Virus record (IMG/VR): IMGVR_UViG_2778261533_000004 | Location: 1 to 12,175 of that record | Strand: one strand, 5' to 3' | DNA length: 12,175 nucleotides | From: a virus | Lineage: Duplodnaviria; Heunggongvirae; Uroviricota; Caudoviricetes | Shown: positions 1,188 through 12,175 of the stretch, piece by piece | Numbering within the stretch: the first letter of the stretch is position 1 | Layout of the letters: each line of letters starts with the position of its first letter | Notes under the pieces: generated by a model | What the model was told of the DNA's origin: nothing | The model's database searches: none | What the model saw: the letters and a program-made list of their open reading frames with translations, nothing else | Program-made: the position numbers and the translations under genes

Positions 1188-1481
1188 TTATTGTGAGCAA
1201 TACACACGCGCTTCCAGCGGAGTATAAATGCCTAAAGTAATAAAACCGAGCAATCCATTTACGAATGTTTGCTGGGTTTCTGTTTTAACAACATTTTCTG
1301 CGCCGCCACAAATTTTGGCTGCATCGACAGTTTTCTTCTGCCCAATTCCAGAAACGAAGAAATGATGGGTGATGGTTTCCTTTGGTGCTACTGCTGCCGG
1401 TTTGTTTTGAACAGTAAACGTCTGTTGAGCACATCCTGTAATAAGCAGGGCCAGCGCAGTAGCGAGTAGCATTTTTTTCAT
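1188..1481 (-). CDS. bor: Bor lipoprotein (lambda Bor family, serum-resistance-associated outer-membrane lipoprotein)
   Basis: 97-aa ORF MKKMLLATALALLITGCAQQTFTVQNKP... with signal peptide and lipobox (ITGC), matching lambda Bor as I recall it. Opposite strand just downstream of Rz, as in lambda. Confidence 0.92.
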   Translation of the reverse strand: MKKMLLATALALLITGCAQQTFTVQNKPAAVAPKETITHHFFVSGIGQKKTVDAAKICGGAENVVKTETQQTFVNGLLGFITLGIYTPLEARVYCSQ

Positions 1482-1771: not shown

Positions 1772-2182
1772 TTAGCGTGGAAAGATTTGTGTAGTGTTCT
1801 GAATGCTCTCAGTAAATAGTAATGAATTATCAAAGGTATAGTAATATCTTTTATGTTCATGGATATTTGTAACCCATCGGAAAACTCCTGCTTTAGCAAG
1901 ATTTTCCCTGTATTGCTGAAATGTGATTTCTCTTGATTTCAACCTATCATAGGACGTTTCTATAAGATGCGTGTTTCTTGAGAATTTAACATTTACAACC
2001 TTTTTAAGTCCTTTTATTAACACGGTGTTATCGTTTTCTAACACGATGTGAATATTATCTGTGGCTAGATAGTAAATATAATGTGAGACGTTGTGACGTT
2101 TTAGTTCAGAATAAAACAATTCACAGTTTAAATCTTTTCGCACTTGATCGAATATTTCTTTAAAAATGGCAACCTGAGCCAT
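1772..2182 (-). CDS. ybcV: YbcV/YdfO-like DUF1398 family protein (lambdoid right-end accessory ORF)
   Basis: [34 protein letters not shown]... I chose the internal ATG at 2182 (136 aa) because it has a good SD (GGAAGG about 9 nt upstream); the tool's longer ORF to 2305 starts at a GTG with no obvious RBS. Recognised from memory as the prophage YbcV/YdfO family. Confidence 0.75.
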
Positions 2183-2467
2183 TGGTAAAACCTTCCATGT
2201 GATACGAGGGCGCGTAGTTTGCATTATCGTTTTTATCGTTTCAATCTGGTCTGACCTCTTTGTGTTTTGTTGATGATTTATGTCAAATATTAGGAATGTT
2301 TTCACTTAATAGTATTGGTTGCGTAACAAAGTGCGGTCCTGCTGGCATTCTGGAGGGAAATACAACCGACAGATGTATGTAAGGCCAACGTGCTCAAATC
2401 TTCATACAGAAAGATTTGAAGTAATATTTTAACCGCTAGATGAAGAGCAAGCGCATGGAGCGACAAA

Positions 2468-2838: not shown

Positions 2839-3033
2839 TCATTCTTCATCACTTTTAATTGATGTATATGCTCTCTTTTCTGACGTTAGTCTCCGACGGC
2901 AGGCTTCAATGACCCAGGCTGAGAAATTCCCGGACCCTTTTTGCTCAAGAGCGATGTTAATTTGTTCAATCATTTGGTTAGGAAAGCGGATGTTGCGGGT
3001 TGTTGTTCTGCGGGTTCTGTTCTTCGTTGACAT
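2839..3033 (-). CDS. ylcI: YlcI-like DUF3950 family small protein (64 aa), function unknown
   Basis: 64-aa basic ORF MSTKNRTRRTTTRNIRFPNQMIEQINIALEQKGSGNFSAWVIEACRRRL..., located next to the cos-proximal right end as in lambda/DLP12-type prophages. Confidence 0.7.
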   Translation of the reverse strand: MSTKNRTRRTTTRNIRFPNQMIEQINIALEQKGSGNFSAWVIEACRRRLTSEKRAYTSIKSDEE

Positions 3034-3039
3034 GAGGTT

Positions 3040-3231
3040 GCCCCGTATTCAGTGTCGCTGATTTGTATTGTCTGAAGTTGTTTTTACGTTAAGTTGATGC
3101 AGATCAATTAATACGATACCTGCGTCATAATTGATTATTTGACGTGGTTTGATGGCGTAGATGCACGTTGTGACATGTAGATGATAATTATTATCATTTT
3201 GCGGGTCCTTTCCGGCGATCCGACAGGTTAC
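3040..3231. other. Lambda right-end (cos-proximal) non-coding sequence ending at or near the cosN cut position; left breakpoint of a large internal prophage deletion
   Basis: Sequence ...gcgggtcctttccggcgatccgacaggttac resembles the extreme right end of lambda DNA as I recall it (...ACGGGTCCTTTCCGGTGATCCGACAGGTTACG, followed in lambda by the cohesive end GGGCGGCGACCT). Here the cohesive-end and left-arm sequences are absent and lom codons follow directly. Confidence 0.6.
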
Positions 3232-3577
3232 CCGCTGGCATGAAGATTCCGTTCGTAACCGCTGGTTCAGCGTAATGGCGGGGCCGTCTGTGCGCGTGAA
3301 TGAATGGTTCAGCGCGTATGCGATGGCGGGTGTAGCTTACAGCCGTGTGTCGACTTTCTCCGGGGATTATCTTCGCGTAACTGACAACAAGGGGAAAAAG
3401 CACGATGTGCTGACCGGAAGTGATGACGGTCGCCACAGCAACACGTCTCTGGCGTGGGGGGCTGGCGTGCAGTTTAACCCGACCGAATCCGTGGCCATTG
3501 ATATTGCTTATGAAGGCTCCGGCAGTGGTGACTGGCGCACTGACGGTTTCATCGTGGGTGTCGGTTATAAATTCTGA
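3230..3577 (+). pseudogene. lom: lom remnant: C-terminal ~115 codons of a Lom/Ail-family outer-membrane protein, lacking N-terminus and signal peptide
   Basis: In-frame translation from about 3230 reads TRWHEDSVRNRWFSVMAGPSVRVNEWFSAYAMAGVAYSRV...GFIVGVGYKF, the C-terminal part of lambda Lom including the terminal aromatic beta-barrel signature. The tool's ATG at 3275 is an internal Met. No upstream signal peptide or start exists because of the junction with the cos-proximal sequence. Confidence 0.85.
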
Positions 3578-3630: not shown

Positions 3631-3641
3631 GTGGGGTGAAT

Positions 3642-6600
3642 ATGGCAGTAAAGATTTCAGGTGTACTGAAAGACGGCACAGGAAAACCGGTACAGAACTG
3701 CACAATCCAGCTGAAAGCAAAACGTAACAGCACCACGGTGGTGGTGAACACGCTGGCCTCAGAAAATCCGGATGAAGCCGGGCGTTACAGCATGGACGTT
3801 GAGTACGGGCAGTACAGCGTTATTCTGTTGGTGGAGGGATTCCCGCCGTCACATGCCGGGACCATTACCGTGTATGAAGATTCTCAACCCGGTACGCTGA
3901 ATGATTTTCTCGGTGCCATGACGGAGGATGATGCCCGTCCGGAGGCATTGCGACGTTTTGAACTGATGGTGGAAGAGGTGGCGCGTAACGCGTCCGCAGT
4001 GGCACAGAACACGGCAGCCGCGAAGAAGTCAGCCAGTGATGCCAGCACATCTGCCAGTGAGGCGGCAACTCATGCAACCGATGCTGCAGGCTCAGCACGC
4101 GCAGCCAGCACGTCAGCCGGACAGGCCGCGTCGTCGGCTCAGTCAGCATCTTCCAGCGCAGGAACGGCATCAACAAAGGCCAGTGAAGCATCGAAAAGTG
4201 CTGCTGCTGCAGAGTCCTCAAAAAGCGCGGCAGCTACCAGTGCCGCTGCGGCGAAAACGTCAGAAACGAATGCGGCAGCGTCACAACAATCAGCAGCCAC
4301 TTCTGCATCCGCCGCGACCACGAAGGCGTCAGAAGCAGCCACCTCAGCCCGGGATGCGGCGGCCTCAAAAGAGGCAGCGAAATCATCAGAAACGAACGCA
4401 TCATCAAGCGCCAGTAGTGCCGCTTCCTCGGCAACGGCGGCAGGCAATTCCGCGAAGGCGGCAAAGACGTCTGAGACAAACGCCAGGTCTTCTGAAACGG
4501 CAGCGGGACAGAGCGCCTCGGCTGCGGCAGGCTCAAAAACAGCGGCTGCGTCGTCTGCCAGTGCCGCGTCAACAAGTGCCGGGCAGGCCTCAGCCAGTGC
4601 CACCGCCGCCGGAAAATCGGCAGAAAGTGCCGCATCGTCTGCTTCAACAGCCACAACGAAGGCTGGCGAAGCCACTGAACAGGCCAGCGCAGCAGCGAGG
4701 TCTGCTTCCGCAGCGAAGACATCCGAGACGAACGCGAAAGCGTCGGAAACCAGCGCAGAATCCTCAAAAACGGCTGCCGCATCGTCCGCCAGTTCGGCGG
4801 CGTCATCGGCATCATCGGCGTCTGCTTCAAAAGATGAGGCGACCAGACAAGCGTCCGCAGCGAAGGGCAGCGCCACGACAGCATCCACGAAGGCGACAGA
4901 GGCAGCTGGCAGTGCGACGGCGGCAGCACAGAGCAAAAGTACGGCGGAATCCGCGGCAACGCGCGCCGAGACAGCGGCAAAACGGGCAGAGGATATTGCA
5001 TCCGCCGTGGCGCTTGAGGATGCAAGTACGACGAAAAAGGGGATAGTACAGCTCAGCAGTGCGACCAACAGTACGTCTGAAACGCTGGCGGCAACGCCAA
5101 AGGCAGTAAAATCAGCCTATGACAATGCAGAGAAACGTCTGCAGAAAGACCAGAACGGCGCTGATATACCCGATAAGGGACGCTTCCTGAACAACATTAA
5201 CGCGGTCAGTAAAACAGACTTTGCTGATAAGCGTGGTATGCGTTATGTGCGGGTTAACGCTCCTGCAGGTGCAACATCTGGAAAATATTACCCTGTTGTT
5301 GTTATGCGTTCTGCTGGCTCAGTAAGCGAACTGGCATCAAGGGTCATTATCACCACGGCAACGCGAACCGCAGGCGATCCGATGAATAACTGCGAGTTTA
5401 ACGGATTTGTTATGCCTGGTGGCTGGACTGACAGGGGGCGTTATGCTTATGGAATGTTCTGGCAATATCAAAACAATGAACGAGCCATCCACTCAATAAT
5501 GATGAGTAATAAGGGCGATGATTTGCGCTCTGTGTTCTATGTTGATGGCGCTGCTTTCCCTGTTTTTGCGTTTATCGAAGATGGCCTGTCAATATCCACA
5601 CCTGGTGCTGATCTCGTTGTTAATGATACGACCTATAAGTTTGGGGCAACAAATCCGGCGACTGAATGTATCGCGGCGGACGTTATCCTTGATTTTAAGA
5701 GTGGGCGTGGTTTTTATGAGTCTCATTCGTTAATCGTTAACGATAACTTGTCGTGCAAAAAACTTTTTGCCACAGACGAAATTGTAGCGCGTGGTGGTAA
5801 TCAGATTCGAATGATAGGTGGGGAGTATGGGGCATTATGGCGTAATGATGGCGCTAAAACTTACCTGCTGCTTACCAATCAAGGTGATGTTTATGGTGGC
5901 TGGAATACATTAAGACCGTTTGCTATTGATAACGCAACCGGCGAACTGGTTATTGGAACCAAACTGTCCGCAAGTCTGAACGGTAATGCATTAACAGCAA
6001 CAAAGCTGCAAACGCCAAGACGGGTTTCTGGTGTTGAGTTTGATGGTTCCAAAGATATTACTTTAACCGCCGCGCATGTGGCTGCTTTTGCCAGAAGGGC
6101 AACGGATACATATGCCGATGCGGATGGTGGCGTTCCCTGGAATGCCGAATCAGGCGCTTATAATGTCACCCGCTCTGGCGACAGCTATATTCTGGTTAAC
6201 TTCTATACCGGAGTCGGAAGTTGCCGGACCTTGCAGATGAAGGCGCATTACAGAAATGGTGGTCTGTTCTACCGTTCTTCAAGAGACGGTTATGGTTTTG
6301 AGGAAGACTGGGCAGAAGTTTATACCTCGAAAAATCTTCCACCAGAAAGCTACCCAGTCGGCGCACCAATCCCGTGGCCATCAGATACCGTTCCGTCTGG
6401 TTATGCCCTGATGCAGGGGCAGACTTTTGACAAATCTGCTTACCCGAAACTTGCAGCCGCTTATCCGTCAGGCGTGATCCCTGATATGCGTGGCTGGACG
6501 ATTAAGGGCAAGCCCGCCAGTGGTCGTGCCGTATTGTCTCAGGAACAGGATGGCATTAAATCGCATACCCACAGCGCCAGCGCATCCAGTACGGATTTGG

Positions 6601-7040
6601 GGACGAAAACCACATCGTCGTTTGATTACGGCACTAAATCCACGAATAACACTGGTGCGCATACCCATAGTTTAAGTGGCAGCACGAATGCAGCTGGTAA
6701 TCACAGCCATAGAGATGGCCGTCGATTTAACCCCAGTGTTTTTAAAGATACTTATCAATATGGTTATACAAGCTCAGGTCAAAATACCTGGGGTGTACAA
6801 GGCTCAGTAGGTATGTCTACGGGGTGGTTAGCTAATACCAGTACAGATGGTAATCATAGCCACTCACTGTCCGGCACAGCAGCATCTGCAGGTGCACACG
6901 CGCATACTGTCGGTATTGGTGCTCATACGCACTCCGTTGCGATTGGTTCACATGGACACACCATCACCGTTAACGCTGCTGGTAACGCGGAAAACACCGT
7001 CAAAAACATCGCATTTAACTATATTGTGAGGCTTGCATAA
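3642..7040 (+). CDS. stf: Side tail fibre protein Stf (long, StfR-like variant, ~1132 aa)
   Basis: N-terminus [37 protein letters not shown]... matches lambda Stf as I recall it; start taken at ATG 3642 (the tool's 3636 is a GTG). Followed by a long Ala/Ser/Thr-rich repetitive shaft, a central domain and a His-rich C-terminal tip (HTHS/HSHS/HAHT repeats, ...[11 protein letters not shown]). Stop overlaps the tfa start (TAATG). Confidence 0.93.
3990..5050 (+). repeat. Low-complexity Ala/Ser/Thr-rich coding repeats in the Stf shaft (reiterated ...AKTSETNA...[10 protein letters not shown]... units)
   Basis: Visible reiteration of GC-rich gcnncngcn codon runs and repeated KTSETNA / SASAA peptide units; this creates long spurious ORFs in other frames and on the opposite strand. 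Confidence 0.7.
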
Positions 7041-7624
7041 TGGCATTCAGAATGAGTGAACAACCACGGACCATAAAAATTTATAATCTGCTGGCCGGAA
7101 CTAATGAATTTATTGGTGAAGGTGACGCATATATTCCGCCTCATACAGGTCTGCCAGCAAACAGTACCGATATTGCACCGCCAGATATTCCGGCTGGCTT
7201 TGTGGCTGTTTTCAACAGTGATGAGGCATCGTGGCATCTCGTTGAAGATCATCGGGGAAAAACCGTCTATGACGTGGCTTCCGGCGACGCGTTATTTATT
7301 TCTGAACTTGGCTCGTTACCGGAAAATGTCACCTGGTTATCGCCGGAAGGGGAATATCAGAAGTGGAACGGCACAGCCTGGGTGAAGGATACGGAAGCAG
7401 AAAAACTGTTCCGGATCCGGGAGGCGGAAGAAACAAAAAACAACCTGATGCAGGTAGCCAGTGAGCATATTGCGCCACTTCAGGATGCTGCAGATCTGGA
7501 AATCGCAACGGAGGAAGAAAACTCGTTGCTGGAAGCCTGGAAAAAGTATCGGGTGTTGCTGAACCGTGTTAATACAACAACTGCACCTGATATTGAGTGG
7601 CCTACGAACCCTGTCAGGGAGTAA
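7040..7624 (+). CDS. tfa: Tail fibre assembly protein Tfa (chaperone for Stf)
   Basis: 194-aa [76 protein letters not shown]..., matching lambda Tfa as I recall it; translationally coupled to stf. Confidence 0.93.
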
Positions 7625-7638
7625 TCATTGGGATTATG

Positions 7639-7672
7639 CCGCAGAAACGTTGTATGCAATAACGTTTTGCGG
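7639..7672 (+). other. Stem-loop just downstream of tfa (12-bp stem with one bulge, 9-nt loop), no U-tract; possible terminator or regulatory hairpin
   Basis: ccgcagaaacgtt-gtatgcaat-aacgttttgcgg inverted repeat 15 nt after the tfa stop; followed by ttggctgg rather than a T-run. Confidence 0.35.
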
Positions 7673-7910
7673 TTGGCTGGTGAACTTCCGATAGTGCGGG
7701 TGTTGAATGATTTCCAGCTGCTACCGATTTTACATATTTTTGCCTGAGAGGATTTGAACCGCCTCCACAGACTCTACATCACAGATAACCACTGTCACGA
7801 GGACTGTTAGTGCTGTGAGTTCAACGGGGCGATGTACGCTACCTTTAATCAAGAGGGAGAGGTACGTTGCTAAGATGAGTTTATATTCATCAACTAAGTG
7901 CAGATCAGCG

Positions 7911-7958
7911 AATAACTAAAACTTGGCTGTCTGTGACAGGAACATCGATTGACAGCCA
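7911..7958 (-). terminator. Candidate intrinsic terminator for the large minus-strand gene
   Basis: On the minus strand, 26 nt after the stop at 7984: inverted repeat tggctgtc...gacagcca (8-bp stem, long loop with possible internal pairing) followed by the U-rich run UUUUAGUUAUU. Confidence 0.35.
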
Positions 7959-7983
7959 GTTTCTCCACATTTAGGTGTTTAGA

Positions 7984-10900
7984 TTAATCATCCTCTCCAA
8001 TATTTAGATTGCTGATAACCTGTGCAGCTTCGTGGTCATAGCCAACCGCTAAATCTCTTAAGGTAACGGCGAATCGCTGAAAACCAGCGTTTTCCACTTC
8101 TTCTGCTTTTGCCCGGAACTGGTCAGCTAGCTCTCTCTCAGGTTTTCCTGTTGGATCAACACAATAAACACCTCGTGAGTTGTAGGCTCCTGTCATGTAG
8201 CCCCTGCGCATACTCTCAGCATCTCGATCGTTGAGAGCAGCTGCGACCTCTCGGTTTATCCACAAGCCATTCGGATCGGAGGGAGTATAAATCAAGACTT
8301 CACCAACTTTGCTGAGTGCAACGTCCAGGTGACCTGATGCCGTAGAACCCTCCTTAACTTTCTGAAGCCATTCAGTAAAGCGTTCTCCGTTGAACGTCCC
8401 ATTTGATTGGCTTCCTGGCGGTGTCTTCCAGTTGTACAAAAGAGTCCAGGCATTTTTTGCGATTGCTTTCAATTCATCTGTTGGTTCACTTGTCATATTG
8501 TCTTCTTTGTCAGAACGATAAATGAGTTGGATTACTTCGCAGAAAAATTCTGGATCATTAGCCATTTTATTCTCAAGGAACTTAGGCACAGCATCTTGGT
8601 GACCATCGAGCAATGGAAGGTAAGCCCACTCGATCTGAAAAAGATTATCCGGATTCACTTTGGGATCAGTCTGAAGAAATTGGATAAGGGTAGTTATGTT
8701 GTAACCATCCATGTTGGAGCTAGATTCGTTAGTTGAAGTGGCAGCAAGCAAAGCGCGGATACACTGTTCAGTATCGATTGGCTGCTTTGTCTGATGCATC
8801 CTGCACAGGCAATTGATTGCCGCAAGTGGTCTGCCATGATCAATCAGCTTATCGATGGCACTAGTAAGATCACCTTCACCCAGGTCAGGATTTGCATCGG
8901 TGCGAGCCCAATATTCGTTCTCGGAAGCTTGAGGATAATGAGAGACTCGGGTCCAGGTCTCCTTGTTAAAAGGCAGATAAGCAAAGAATTGGCCTAACTG
9001 TTCAGGAGTCCAGTCAGCTTTATCCAGATTGTCGAACCACTCCCAGCCTTTGAGATAGAAACGCTTCCAAATAAAAGCGCTTACCAATGCCTTATACTTA
9101 TTTTCTTTTGTATTGAGGAAACGGGGCAAAAGAAGTTTTTCGAACACATCATCGTTGATAGTGCCGAGTACACTTCCTATTTGATGGGGCGCAGAAACGT
9201 GATCTGCAAATCGAATAACGCCTTCTGCGCCATCTTGCCTAAGAATTTCTGATATTGCGGATTCGCGCCTTGATTCGAGTTTATTTCTCCGTTCTTCCCA
9301 ATCGCCATTTTCTAAGTAAAGATCAAAATCTCGATTTGAAAAAAGGTGCTGATATAAGTTGAATGGATTGGTAGGTGCCAGTTGCTCGGCAACATTTTCG
9401 ATTTTGGTCAGCAGATCATCTGGTAAAGCCCAATTAGCATTAGAGAATCGCCGATGTTTATTTGCGAATCGATGAAGATGATCCCAAATTACAACTCGCT
9501 GCTCTTCATTAAGACAATTAATTGTTTCCGAAGAGAGGTGCTTAAGAAGATGTTCGAAAGCAGGAGATGGAAGGCTATCAAAATTATCAATCAACAAGGT
9601 AAGGCGTTCGATATCTTCTCCGGCGTTTTTGACGGCAAGCTCAGCATAAAAAGATGTCTGCAACCAGTAATCCTGATTAGTCACTTTGCTTTCCCAATCA
9701 TCTGGGATTATTCGGCGCCAAGAGGGCTTGTGTGACCCAGAAGAGGTTTGATGGTGACCGGGTAGAAGCTGGACGAGTAAATTCCAGGCAATGTCAGGCC
9801 ATTCCTGCAAGATGACGTTGACTGCAACTTTTCGTTTTTCTATAGATGCCAGCGTTTGCGGAAACCACGGTAATAATATAGTAGTAAGCGAGTTAGATGG
9901 TCGATTAGCCCACTTGCCCCCAGGATCGTGGCTGGCAAGTTCGGCCAGTACAACACAGACGCGTACTAGGTATTGCTCATCCCAGGCTAATTCTTCTAGA
10001 GCCCATAGCAGTCCTGTCAGATAATTACCACCAGTGATACCATTTACTTCTTGAGAAAAAAGCTCATCAAATACACAAGGAGTCTGACGCATTGCCTTCT
10101 CAACTGCATCAAGAAATTTTGCAGGAGCTGCTTCAGCCAAAGTTGGTAGCAAACCGTTTAGGCTACCCCATAAAACCCAGTTTGCATCAGTCAAAATTGT
10201 ATGTATTGCGACGTTAACGGAAGTTTCAGCATTCCCCTGAGAGCAGTTAACGCAAACCTCTGGCCGACTCCCGATTATGGCTAAACCCTCTGCTATACCT
10301 TGTCGCAGCGTGGATGAAAACTTCAGCACCTTACCATGAATACTAGCAGCGTAACGCTCTTCAGCAGGTAATTCGAAAGCAGGGTCTGGCTCTTTGAGTA
10401 CGGAAATCGCGGAAGACTTAAACAATTCAAGATTCTGATCAAAAATGCGGGATCCAAGAAGACTCCATAGCTCCATTCGATTTGTTACTTTCCAAATGCC
10501 GTTTTTTAGGGACAAAGGACTGTCTGGGCTATGTAAAATCTCTCGAGCCTTCCTTAGCCATTCGTCATAGCTGATACCAAGCAATTGGGTTAGTACATTT
10601 CGGTCACACTCATTTTTATCATTCCATTGCCCAATCAACACTGCTAAGGCTAAATAAGAGGCATCTGGGTGGTGAGTCCAGTCGGTTTTGACTACCGGTT
10701 GTACTAACCTCAACTTCTCAGGTATTTCAGCAATAACCCTTTGTTTGAAAACATCTAAAAGATCTTCAGGTAGCTTACTTGAAATGATAGTGCCAGCATC
10801 TTTATTCCAAGTTTGTACGATATCAACTATCCGCGACCAAACCCACTGAGGATACTGTTGATGGAATTGCGCTATGTGGGAGTGCAGCAAAGAAAGGACG

Positions 10901-11526
10901 ACGCCTGATTCATTACCCAGATCGTACCCTAGTAAATGGAAATGGTTCAAAAAGTCATAAAGCTCATCGTTTGTTAAATCGTTCCCACTGTTTGCCATCT
11001 TCAGATGAAACTGGATGGCCTCCAGTTTCTCAGTACTTTTAGGCGGGCTGAACTTGGCTTTTTGAACGTTCCTCAAAAATTCATCGACTGTTTTTGTGTG
11101 TCTAGCCTGATTCAATAACCAGAGCACATTGTGTGTATCGGTCGAACTGAGCGGACCGGTGATCAGTGCAATAACATCCTTGTTCTTGGTAAACAAGTCA
11201 GGATTGTTGAAATCGTTCCAAGCAGCCTGTATAACTTCCCCAAGTATCGCATTACCTTGCGTAAATGAAATAGAATGCTTTATTTGTCCTAATAGCTTCC
11301 GTTTTTCATTGCTGTTGAAATCTTTAACAACGACGATCAAGTCGTCGGTATCAAAACCATCAATCTTGCCCTGGAGATTTATCTCCACTATGGGCCAACA
11401 AGGAAGACAAGGTGCATTACCGCCTGTTAGCATTAGAGCAACAAAAGACGCTTGGACATGTGCTTCAAAATGAACACCGCCTCCGCCTGTAGAAAAAGGA
11501 TTACTCAAATTTTTTTTATTTGTCAT
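7984..11526 (-). CDS. Large hypothetical protein (~1180 aa), no family assignable by eye; candidate prophage accessory or defence gene
   Basis: Single uninterrupted minus-strand ORF of about 3.5 kb with coherent codon usage; many short antisense ORFs inside it are frame-shadow artefacts. Start assigned to ATG 11526 (MTNKKNLSNPFSTGGGGVHFE...); the tool's start at 11532 is a TTG two codons upstream. RBS is weak or ambiguous. Appears more AT-rich than the flanking phage genes, by eye only. Confidence 0.8.
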   Translation of the reverse strand: MTNKKNLSNPFSTGGGGVHFEAHVQASFVALMLTGGNAPCLPCWPIVEINLQGKIDGFDTDDLIVVVKDFNSNEKRKLLGQIKHSISFTQGNAILGEVIQAAWNDFNNPDLFTKNKDVIALITGPLSSTDTHNVLWLLNQARHTKTVDEFLRNVQKAKFSPPKSTEKLEAIQFHLKMANSGNDLTNDELYDFLNHFHLLGYDLGNESGVVLSLLHSHIAQFHQQYPQWVWSRIVDIVQTWNKDAGTIISSKLPEDLLDVFKQRVIAEIPEKLRLVQPVVKTDWTHHPDASYLALAVLIGQWNDKNECDRNVLTQLLGISYDEWLRKAREILHSPDSPLSLKNGIWKVTNRMELWSLLGSRIFDQNLELFKSSAISVLKEPDPAFELPAEERYAASIHGKVLKFSSTLRQGIAEGLAIIGSRPEVCVNCSQGNAETSVNVAIHTILTDANWVLWGSLNGLLPTLAEAAPAKFLDAVEKAMRQTPCVFDELFSQEVNGITGGNYLTGLLWALEELAWDEQYLVRVCVVLAELASHDPGGKWANRPSNSLTTILLPWFPQTLASIEKRKVAVNVILQEWPDIAWNLLVQLLPGHHQTSSGSHKPSWRRIIPDDWESKVTNQDYWLQTSFYAELAVKNAGEDIERLTLLIDNFDSLPSPAFEHLLKHLSSETINCLNEEQRVVIWDHLHRFANKHRRFSNANWALPDDLLTKIENVAEQLAPTNPFNLYQHLFSNRDFDLYLENGDWEERRNKLESRRESAISEILRQDGAEGVIRFADHVSAPHQIGSVLGTINDDVFEKLLLPRFLNTKENKYKALVSAFIWKRFYLKGWEWFDNLDKADWTPEQLGQFFAYLPFNKETWTRVSHYPQASENEYWARTDANPDLGEGDLTSAIDKLIDHGRPLAAINCLCRMHQTKQPIDTEQCIRALLAATSTNESSSNMDGYNITTLIQFLQTDPKVNPDNLFQIEWAYLPLLDGHQDAVPKFLENKMANDPEFFCEVIQLIYRSDKEDNMTSEPTDELKAIAKNAWTLLYNWKTPPGSQSNGTFNGERFTEWLQKVKEGSTASGHLDVALSKVGEVLIYTPSDPNGLWINREVAAALNDRDAESMRRGYMTGAYNSRGVYCVDPTGKPERELADQFRAKAEEVENAGFQRFAVTLRDLAVGYDHEAAQVISNLNIGEDD

Positions 11527-11845
11527 TAACAATCACATCCACATTTTGATTACGAATAGATGAAAAAGAAGAGCACTCATACTTCAGAACTTATTCCACC
11601 TATATCTTTTAAAGACACTGTTATGCCTAGCATTTACGTAGATTAGCTAGCTCTCGTAAGCAATGGCTATTGCTAAAATGAATAGTTAGGTTATATCCAG
11701 TATTTTATGCTGGCGCAAGATACCCTTCGGGCCTGACAAATTTTTGTAGGTCTGAGTCACCTCTTTCCGTATGGGAGCAAATTCACAGTGGTTTGAGGAT
11801 GCTAATCTTAAAGTGAGTAACGTCTTCATACTCCAAGGAGAGTAC

Positions 11846-12175
11846 GGTAATGACTCCAACTTACTGATAGTGTTTTATGTTCAGATAATGCCCGATGACC
11901 TTGTCATGCAACTCCACCGATTTTGAGAACGACAGTGACTTCCGTCCCAGCCTTGCCAGATGTTGTCTCAGATTCAGATTATGTCGCTCAATGCGCTGAG
12001 TATAACGCTTGCTGATAACGTGCAGCTTTCCCTTCAGGCGTGATTCATACAGCGGCCAGCCATCCGTCATCCATACCACGACCTCAAAGGCCGACAGCAG
12101 GCTCAGAAGACGCTCCAGTGTGGCCAGAGTGCGTTCACCGAAGACGTGCGCCACAACCGTCCTCCGTATCCTGTC
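11846..12175 (-). mobile_element. IS1 insertion sequence, partial (one terminal inverted repeat plus the 3' part of insB; continues beyond the window)
   Basis: ggtaatgactccaacttactgat at 11846 matches the IS1 terminal inverted repeat as I recall it. The downstream sequence encodes the InsB C-terminus on the minus strand. The other end of the element is outside the window. Confidence 0.9.
11861..12175 (-). CDS. insB: IS1 transposase InsB, C-terminal portion (5' part outside the window)
   Basis: Translation ...[98 protein letters not shown] matches IS1 InsB with several substitutions relative to the IS1A copy I remember. The reading frame is open to the window end; the tool's start at 12154 is an internal GTG. 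Confidence 0.88.

Follow-up and report, generated by a model that had tools for sequence, protein, structure and literature searches.

A hallmark of prokaryotic immune proteins, among them Avs, DSR and the effectors of cyclic oligonucleotide-based antiphage signalling systems (CBASS), is an architecture in which 'death' effectors are interchanged on a sensor or scaffold that stays constant. DSR2 consists of an N-terminal effector and a C-terminal HEAT-like repeat sensor; it has no ATPase, is encoded by a single gene and acts through abortive infection. In Avs proteins such as Avs3 (SeAvs3, PDB 8dgc), oligomerisation is driven by a central NTPase of the STAND class (signal transduction ATPases with numerous domains). 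The nuclease of Cap4 (CBASS) is controlled by a SAVED domain together with a cyclic oligonucleotide, that of LmuA (Lamassu) by the SMC-like LmuB, and that of type I-B HamA (Hachiman) by the helicase HamB. Here we describe a gene carried as cargo at one end of a defective lambda-like prophage, in a 12,175-nucleotide (nt) stretch of DNA from the IMG/VR record IMGVR_UViG_2778261533_000004, referred to below as the window. Its 1180-residue product is probably a single-polypeptide sensor-effector abortive-infection nuclease, in which a Cap4-like endonuclease is mounted on a solenoid of about 830 residues. The gene and its parts are as follows.

7984..11526, minus strand: coding sequence of WP_000182525.1, 1180 residues, ATG at 11526 and TAA stop at 7984-7986; 'hypothetical protein' in RefSeq
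10732..11526, minus strand: N-terminal effector module, residues 1-265; predicted Cap4-like PD-(D/E)xK endonuclease core with a helical subdomain
11152..11487, minus strand: predicted nuclease core, residues 14-125; putative catalytic E21, D62 and Q81-x-K83
10477..10683, minus strand: connector, residues 282-350; two helices and a beta-hairpin, winged-helix-like; the conserved body begins here
7987..10476, minus strand: C-terminal alpha-solenoid, HEAT/ARM-like, residues 351-1180; presumed sensor/scaffold, no NTPase motif
9847..10206, minus strand: most conserved stretch of the body, residues 441-560, in a profile of 73 diverse full-length homologues

The initial annotation, made from the letters of the DNA, had noted a large minus-strand open reading frame (ORF) after stf-tfa and convergent with tfa (7040-7624, plus strand), and the frame is indeed open throughout 7984..11532, with 1182 codons when counted from a TTG. 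The alignment with orthologues, including those of Kosakonia, Dickeya, Pantoea and Thiorhodococcus, is gap-free across the 1180 codons, and the gene is under purifying selection, with a ratio of nonsynonymous to synonymous substitution rates (dN/dS) of 0.08-0.17. The nuclease core is the most constrained region (0.06) and the C-terminal half the least (0.21-0.25). The protein is rich in Trp (3.1%) and Leu (11.5%) and has CxxC motifs at residues 40 and 425, the cysteines of which are kept in a close subclade and not across the family. Neither Walker A, in strict or relaxed form, nor HExxH occurs in the 1180 residues; on all these features the initial annotation was right. Its remark on AT-richness was right in part: the G+C content of the gene (43.9%; 0.42-0.47 per 500-nt segment) is below that of stf (up to 0.64), but not below that of every phage gene, the lowest values in the window (0.37-0.38) being found around the DUF1398 gene at 1500-2500.

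Residues 1-300 were modelled with AlphaFold from an alignment of 102 sequences, 47-75% identical, giving a predicted local distance difference test score (pLDDT) of 85.9 and a predicted template modelling score (pTM) of 0.78. The model comprises a helix (18-33), three strands (45-50, 63-68 and 75-83), a second helix (93-106) and a fourth strand (118-123), followed by a helical subdomain that reaches to about residue 260. The predicted fold is that of the PD-(D/E)xK restriction-endonuclease core, in the order alpha-beta-beta-beta-alpha-beta, with a helical extension, and Cap4-type domains are structurally closest to it in fold comparison. A Gly-rich lead-in (G14, G17 and F20) precedes the helix bearing E21. 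E21, D61, D62 and K83 are invariant in homologues down to 34% identity, while Q81 never varies in one alignment (A4) and is conserved to 90% or more in two others (A2 and A3). In HamA, the active site of the Cap4 domain is formed by D45, Q58 and K60, and their mutation ends both nuclease activity and defence (PMC11914072). At the level of sequence, D62...Q81-x-K83 is the same D...QxK signature as this triad. The predicted fold and the motif overturn the earlier opinion that the protein resembles no nuclease or known defence family, and from them we infer that the module is a metal-dependent DNA endonuclease.

At the connector, where the conserved body begins, homologues have other N-terminal domains fused to the body, and the split form described below is divided close by, at about residue 320. 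In a full-length AlphaFold run with 44 close homologues, residues ~300-1180 came out as a helical solenoid whose local confidence was good, and the N-terminus was not resolved (pLDDT below 50). Past residue 265 the model is all-helical except for one hairpin, in keeping with the helical body that the initial annotation had expected. The conserved stretch of residues 441-560 contains the motifs SLNGLLPxLAEA, GLLWALExLAW, DPGGxWxNRPxNS and ILLPWxPQT, and L510, E511 and T558 are invariant across homologues.

The effector, by comparison with the body, is exchangeable. Among the best 150 cluster representatives, 45 are devoid of the Cap4-like module and align only from about residue 250-330 onward. 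The following N-termini take its place.

SIR2_2
PNP_UDP_1 phosphorylase/nucleosidase
'GT4-conflict' glycosyltransferase
FRG
calcineurin-like metallophosphatase
DUF4062
Schlafen/AlbA_2
two small helical domains, suspected to be HEPN-like but not confirmed as such
360-residue domain of unassigned type (P0206 type), the commonest, in 14 representatives

When these N-termini were searched with PADLOC, the SIR2 domain resembled the pAgo-associated SIR2 (E 1e-101), the PNP domain resembled a CBASS effector, and FRG matched the candidate system PDC-S15; the shared body of the effector-swapped homologues was never matched. P0206 itself matched PD-Lambda-4_A at E 0.0013, which was judged to be noise at the level of repeats. 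No relationship between the Cap4-like and the 360-residue P0206-type modules was detected by hhalign. Versions of about 860 residues without any N-module also occur. On one 4.6-Mb contig (L090, 8001-11547), a gene for a 321-residue N-module overlaps a gene for an 863-residue body by 11 nt, with PIN and ParDE toxin-antitoxin genes around them, and because many independent matches are exactly 321 residues long, this natural two-gene split appears to be recurrent. More distant solenoid relatives, about 27% identical, lie on plasmids of rhizobia, Ralstonia, Arthrobacter and Shewanella (H26-H36). Their annotations, helix-turn-helix (HTH) transcriptional regulator or HigA antitoxin, imply that an HTH precedes the body at the N-terminus and suggest that an HTH-solenoid architecture exists on plasmids.

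In concept, the architecture of the protein is that of DSR2, and the family includes members with a SIR2 effector (P0187). However, no sequence relationship was found: the DSR models of PADLOC match neither the cargo protein nor the body of P0187, DSR2 structures are absent among the fold-search matches, and the effector here is a predicted nuclease whereas that of DSR2 is an NADase. Unlike Avs3, the cargo protein has neither a Walker A motif nor a P-loop fold; no Avs or STAND hidden Markov model (HMM) of PADLOC or Pfam matches it, and its HEAT/ARM-like solenoid has no specific similarity to the Avs sensor. It also differs from Cap4, LmuA and HamA in that its nuclease would presumably be controlled by a covalently attached solenoid or, where the protein is split, by the product of the neighbouring gene; the loci of the family have no conserved cyclase, SMC or helicase partner. 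Upx (Gao et al. 2020; PDB 9wuf, 1212 residues) gave a weak match confined to the generic nuclease core; there was no match to it by PADLOC or by PDB sequence search, and it is absent from the fold matches of the whole model.

The initial annotation had called the gene an orphan, a description that does not survive the homologue searches. When 1.84 billion cluster representatives (50% identity clusters) were searched exhaustively with HMMER, 6,665 clusters were returned at E≤1e-3, 3,112 of them at E≤1e-30, spanning bacteria and archaea. A word-indexed search yielded more than 1,900 matches; the best 120 are all 1149-1196 residues long and 68-100% identical, and come from Enterobacterales, Vibrio, Microbulbifer, Chlorobium, Planctomycetota and Acidithiobacillus. 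When one genome per species was scanned by pattern, the gene turned up in at least 311 of 185,579 species. The whole protein and three sub-segments gave only sub-threshold noise in Pfam (THR4_C, TPR_LAA1_C and Carot_N) and nothing in NCBIfam, and PDB sequence searches found nothing with either the single sequence or the 73-sequence profile. In PHROGs, phrog_18693, of unknown function, matches the body only. A literature search by accession, by Cap4 and HEAT, by combinations of conflict domains and by genes embedded in restriction-modification (R-M) or bacteriophage exclusion (BREX) operons found no description of the family; WP_000182525.1 is absent from the DefensePredictor supplements, and no paper or supplement testing phage protection by the family was found. 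Judged by the literature and the 2023 PADLOC models, the family is unnamed, and it may have been named very recently.

The genomic neighbours place the family among defence genes. A total of 130 immediately flanking proteins from ~72 non-redundant loci were surveyed, in which the type I specificity subunit HsdS (7-8), PglX-type methyltransferases (5), HsdR (3), AAA_21 (2) and PIN (2) are the commonest families. As no neighbour is conserved, the gene acts alone or with unlinked partners. About one fifth of the surveyed loci, as a raw count from clustering with no background model, lie within an R-M or BREX operon or immediately next to one. Two arrangements recur, in both of which the reading frames abut or overlap (X, member of the family).

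hsdM-hsdS-X-hsdR, type I R-M: L037 and, by clustering, L048, L052, L078 and others
BrxC-(Schlafen/ATPase)-PglX-X-PglZ(type 1B)-BrxL, BREX-1: L031, L038, L044 and L075

The SIR2 variant comes after hsdM-hsdS, which it overlaps by 4 nt, and adjoins a DUF4238 gene. The 360-residue-domain variant has a DrmD-like HTH-SNF2-NOV_C helicase on one side and a DUF1156 'anti-phage-associated' protein on the other, and lies beside AbiE (L092, 4405-14623). This variant, whose architecture (the 360-residue N-domain plus the body) is also the one behind phrog_18693, may be a component of a multi-gene system resembling DISARM (defence island system associated with restriction-modification) or related to BREX, rather than a stand-alone protein. 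Other copies occupy integrative islands: that of Kosakonia with CbtA/CbeA, anti-restriction and RadC genes and a type I R-M system with AAA_21, that of Dickeya with an integrase, CcdAB and a reverse transcriptase, and that of Alloalcanivorax with SymE, Fic and HsdR. Over about 75 loci, the family is thus located recurrently in or beside defence systems of unrelated genomes, the pattern on which guilt by association relies. In three Dickeya assemblies, two genes without Pfam matches (257 and 276 residues) follow the homologue on the same strand (L004/L005, 13956-15664), and beyond them lie CcdAB, an ArdC-like protein and a reverse transcriptase of 309 residues; the two genes may be further defence cargo.

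On this in silico evidence, we consider the gene a strong candidate for a single-gene anti-phage system, because its N-module is Cap4-like, homologues exchange this module for canonical immune effector domains, and its family is large, horizontally spread, unnamed and often located within restriction-type defence operons. The initial annotation had offered an uncharacterised single-gene defence system as one of its hypotheses, and the computed evidence now favours this proposal, with a protective phenotype still a matter of deduction. By analogy with DSR2, Avs/Avs3, Cap4 and the HamA effectors, we propose that the solenoid would hold the nuclease inactive until it binds a cue associated with infection, either a phage protein or a perturbed host or restriction complex. 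The nuclease would then be released or oligomerised, a change of oligomeric state being probable, and would degrade DNA indiscriminately, so that the infection is aborted. The trigger might be a phage protein, as for DSR2 and Avs, or, on the model of PrrC, PARIS and Ronin, an interference with methylation-based restriction. The second option is worth testing, because residues 441-560 of the body are strongly conserved and members of the family have inserted again and again in R-M, BREX and DISARM-like operons; the counter-argument is that most copies, that of E. coli among them, do not adjoin restriction systems.

Several results speak against a sensor-effector nuclease. No Pfam family, Cap4 nuclease and DUF4297 included, matches residues 1-280 even at E≤10, and the Cap4, LmuA and HamA models of PADLOC give no match at E≤1. 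Since no family HMM matches, the nuclease assignment rests on the predicted structure and a short motif. For the protein as a whole, PADLOC-DB v2.0.0 (2023) returned 0 families at E≤1; the full-length model is of moderate quality (pTM 0.46), and fold searches with the solenoid revealed no specific similarity to any known sensor. The embedding in R-M and BREX operons is limited to the one fifth of surveyed loci given above, and the E. coli copy in the window has no restriction partner. As for expression, an insertion sequence (IS), IS1, lies 320 nt upstream of the gene, and a promoter scan of 11527-11845 found no strong sigma-70 consensus and nothing above the shuffled expectation.

The same neighbourhoods can be read in a narrower way, namely that the protein is a back-up, or 'anti-anti-restriction', guard, whose solenoid, rather than recognising a structural protein of the phage, monitors type I R-M, BREX or DISARM complexes or binds their phage inhibitors, DNA mimics like Ocr and ArdA; blocked restriction would unleash the effector, as in PrrC, PARIS and Ronin. 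Members with differing effectors are inserted in hsdS-X-hsdR, pglX-X-pglZ and DrmD-X-DUF1156, often with overlapping frames, and HsdS and PglX are the commonest immediate neighbours. Suicide modules that are linked to restriction and triggered by anti-restriction proteins have documented precedents, BREX operons are known to embed back-up nucleases, and the highly conserved core of residues 441-560 would be easier to explain by a conserved partner than by a phage antigen that evolves fast. The family shares with PrrC, PARIS and Ronin the habit of lying in or beside type I R-M or BREX operons, but the proteins are unrelated, PrrC being an ABC-ATPase anticodon nuclease and PARIS consisting of AriA and AriB. 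Ronin was checked as a possible relative and found to be unrelated, RonA being a membrane peptide of 61 residues. On the other hand, most loci, the E. coli copy included, are without adjacent R-M or BREX genes, and R-M operons are hotspots where mechanistically unrelated defence genes gather as well. We regard a dedicated guard as rather unlikely. Its general form, a previously unrecognised, NTPase-free class of modular receptors in which the solenoid guards methylation-based restriction, senses anti-restriction proteins of phages or restriction complexes that are stalled or inhibited, and fires whichever effector is attached, as a widespread second layer of immunity that is also portable as a stand-alone gene, likewise has only a fairly small chance of being correct.

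The mobility of the gene raises another question, whether it serves its own spread and has no anti-phage role. The DNA homology to the Kosakonia copy (84.7%) is confined to 7898-11540 of the window, which takes in the gene, about 86 nt on its 3′ side and 14 nt on its 5′ side. The 3′ flank, which holds a hairpin, is kept in the Kosakonia and Pantoea copies and the sequence beyond it differs. Since the homology covers little else and the hairpin is conserved, the mobile unit is essentially the gene with its own terminator, which bears out the horizontally acquired cargo at the tail-fibre-distal end of the prophage that the initial annotation had proposed. Such sharp boundaries, the company of toxin-antitoxin genes, integrases and IS elements, and the occurrence of relatives on 40 plasmid records would suit a selfish addiction or mobility module, in which a toxic nuclease with a built-in inhibitor domain stabilises or spreads its carrier DNA, for example by killing segregants or as a homing-type nuclease that would explain the precise insertion into operons. 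However, the SIR2, PNP, Schlafen, FRG and phosphatase replacements cannot carry out homing and are typical immune effectors, a search around the gene for terminal repeats or target-site duplications found nothing convincing, and there is no cognate antitoxin gene. We consider a purely selfish module quite unlikely. Under the sensor-effector nuclease model, the gene and its terminator would have been acquired horizontally at the tail-fibre-distal end of the now defective lambda-like prophage, the features of which are given below.

201-698: R lysozyme (Pfam)
683-1156: Rz (Pfam)
1188-1481, minus strand: Bor (Pfam)
1772-2305, minus strand: DUF1398 protein, p78-like (Pfam)
2469-2675: small p79-like ORF
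3275-3577: Lom, C-terminal half only (Pfam)
3636-7040, plus strand: Stf (Pfam); stf-tfa is context and lies outside the proposed system
7040-7624, plus strand: Tfa (Caudo_TAP; Pfam)
7922..7960, minus strand: hairpin followed by a U-run, a likely intrinsic terminator 24 nt past the stop codon of the cargo gene (-20.1 kcal/mol, z -2.2)
11527..11845, minus strand: AT-rich upstream non-coding region of 319 nt, the presumed native promoter site, bounded by the IS1 end
11846..12175, minus strand: IS1, partial because the window end cuts it; right boundary of the cargo

The prophage is a defective lambdoid one, as all head and tail genes are missing in comparison with an intact relative (L001), and both this description and the presence of IS1 on the right agree with the initial annotation; the outermost base of the IS1 inverted repeat lies at 11846, and the DDE_Tnp_IS1 ORF at 11861-12154. 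At 2900-3280, the right arm with R, Rz, bor, DUF1398 and the p79-like ORF extends to what we take to be the right cohesive-end region of lambda, '...tccggcgatccgacaggttac', and is there joined directly to the interior of lom (junction ~3223-3233). The deletion of nu1 through J thus seems to have one end at or adjoining the cos cleavage site. The gene shows the features of lambdoid b-region cargo (a moron): a position distal to stf-tfa, a G+C content of 44% and its own terminator. The exact prophage end (attR) could not be located, being obscured by IS elements. Within stf, 4056-5015 (plus strand) encodes an Ala/Ser/Thr-rich low-complexity segment of 320 residues, with a G+C content of 0.60-0.64 and an AT skew of ~0.4; it yields three long spurious ORFs in other frames or on the other strand (4036-5046, 4139-5068 and 4234-5025), and no tandem repeat was reported there by Tandem Repeats Finder. 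Right after tfa, within the 360 nt that separate it from the cargo gene and at the place corresponding to 7628-7747 (plus strand), related genomes have a RefSeq 'capsid protein' of 39 residues (WP_106121378.1), which looks like a fragment or a spurious call.

A prophage stripped in this way, together with the nearby IS1 and the failure to detect a strong promoter, invites the view that the gene, although intact, is a silent or decaying passenger in the present strain, whatever the family does elsewhere, and one further E. coli genome (ES4, H8) keeps only a truncated copy. The gene is rare in E. coli, 7 of 5,426 complete genomes carrying at least 80% of the region, and in the three carriers inspected it occupies the same chromosomal site, the right end of the prophage beside the yagP/pao/ecp region. 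Yet at least seven E. coli genomes, from differing hosts and continents, carry the reading frame unbroken and with 99.5-100% identity. A related strain (H6) has no IS1, the homology stopping exactly at 11845, and strain A28 has ISSen4 in place of IS1 upstream of the gene. As two of these genomes have another element or no IS at the upstream junction, the gene is older than the IS1 insertion and has been retained. In three carriers (H3-H5; L008, 11240-11998), a serine acetyltransferase gene and an HTH pseudogene stand between tfa and the cargo gene; from these varying inserts and IS elements it follows that the slot has been remodelled repeatedly with the 1180-residue gene staying intact. We think there is just a slight chance that the gene is a mere passenger.

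Pathogenic E. coli prophages often carry effectors beside tail-fibre genes, and this position is what would favour a secreted virulence effector (type III or other), the second hypothesis of the initial annotation, or a phage structural or lysis accessory protein. Both are highly improbable, given the nuclease fold rather than a secretion signal predicted at the N-terminus, the commensal or environmental origin of the carrier strains, the homologues of 48-83% identity in cyanobacteria, Chloroflexi, Firmicutes, spirochaetes, a Saccharibacteria bin and two methanogen bins, the close full-length homologues in free-living Chlorobium, sulfate reducers and Paenibacillus as well as in cyanobacteria, Chloroflexi and methanogens, and the single weak partial match in 50,697 phage genomes. 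From its near-absence in phage genomes it also follows that the gene is host or mobile-island cargo that landed at a prophage end and not a typical phage gene.

We rate the family, by analogy with the systems compared here, as new and NTPase-free candidate sensor-effector immune proteins of a known general kind. If this is correct, a large family of more than 6,600 clusters in many phyla, not covered by Pfam or the 2023 PADLOC models, would join the bacterial immune proteins, and it would be a clear case of effectors and a sensor combined as modules with no STAND or other ATPase switch. With a constant solenoid, at least eight interchangeable effectors and natural splits, the family is tractable for studying how a helical-repeat sensor controls diverse enzymes, and as it has inserted again and again in R-M, BREX and DISARM-like operons, it offers a direct test of layered 'back-up' immunity. 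The proposal as a whole can be tested directly in E. coli, the copy of which would be the entry point for experiments in a model host.

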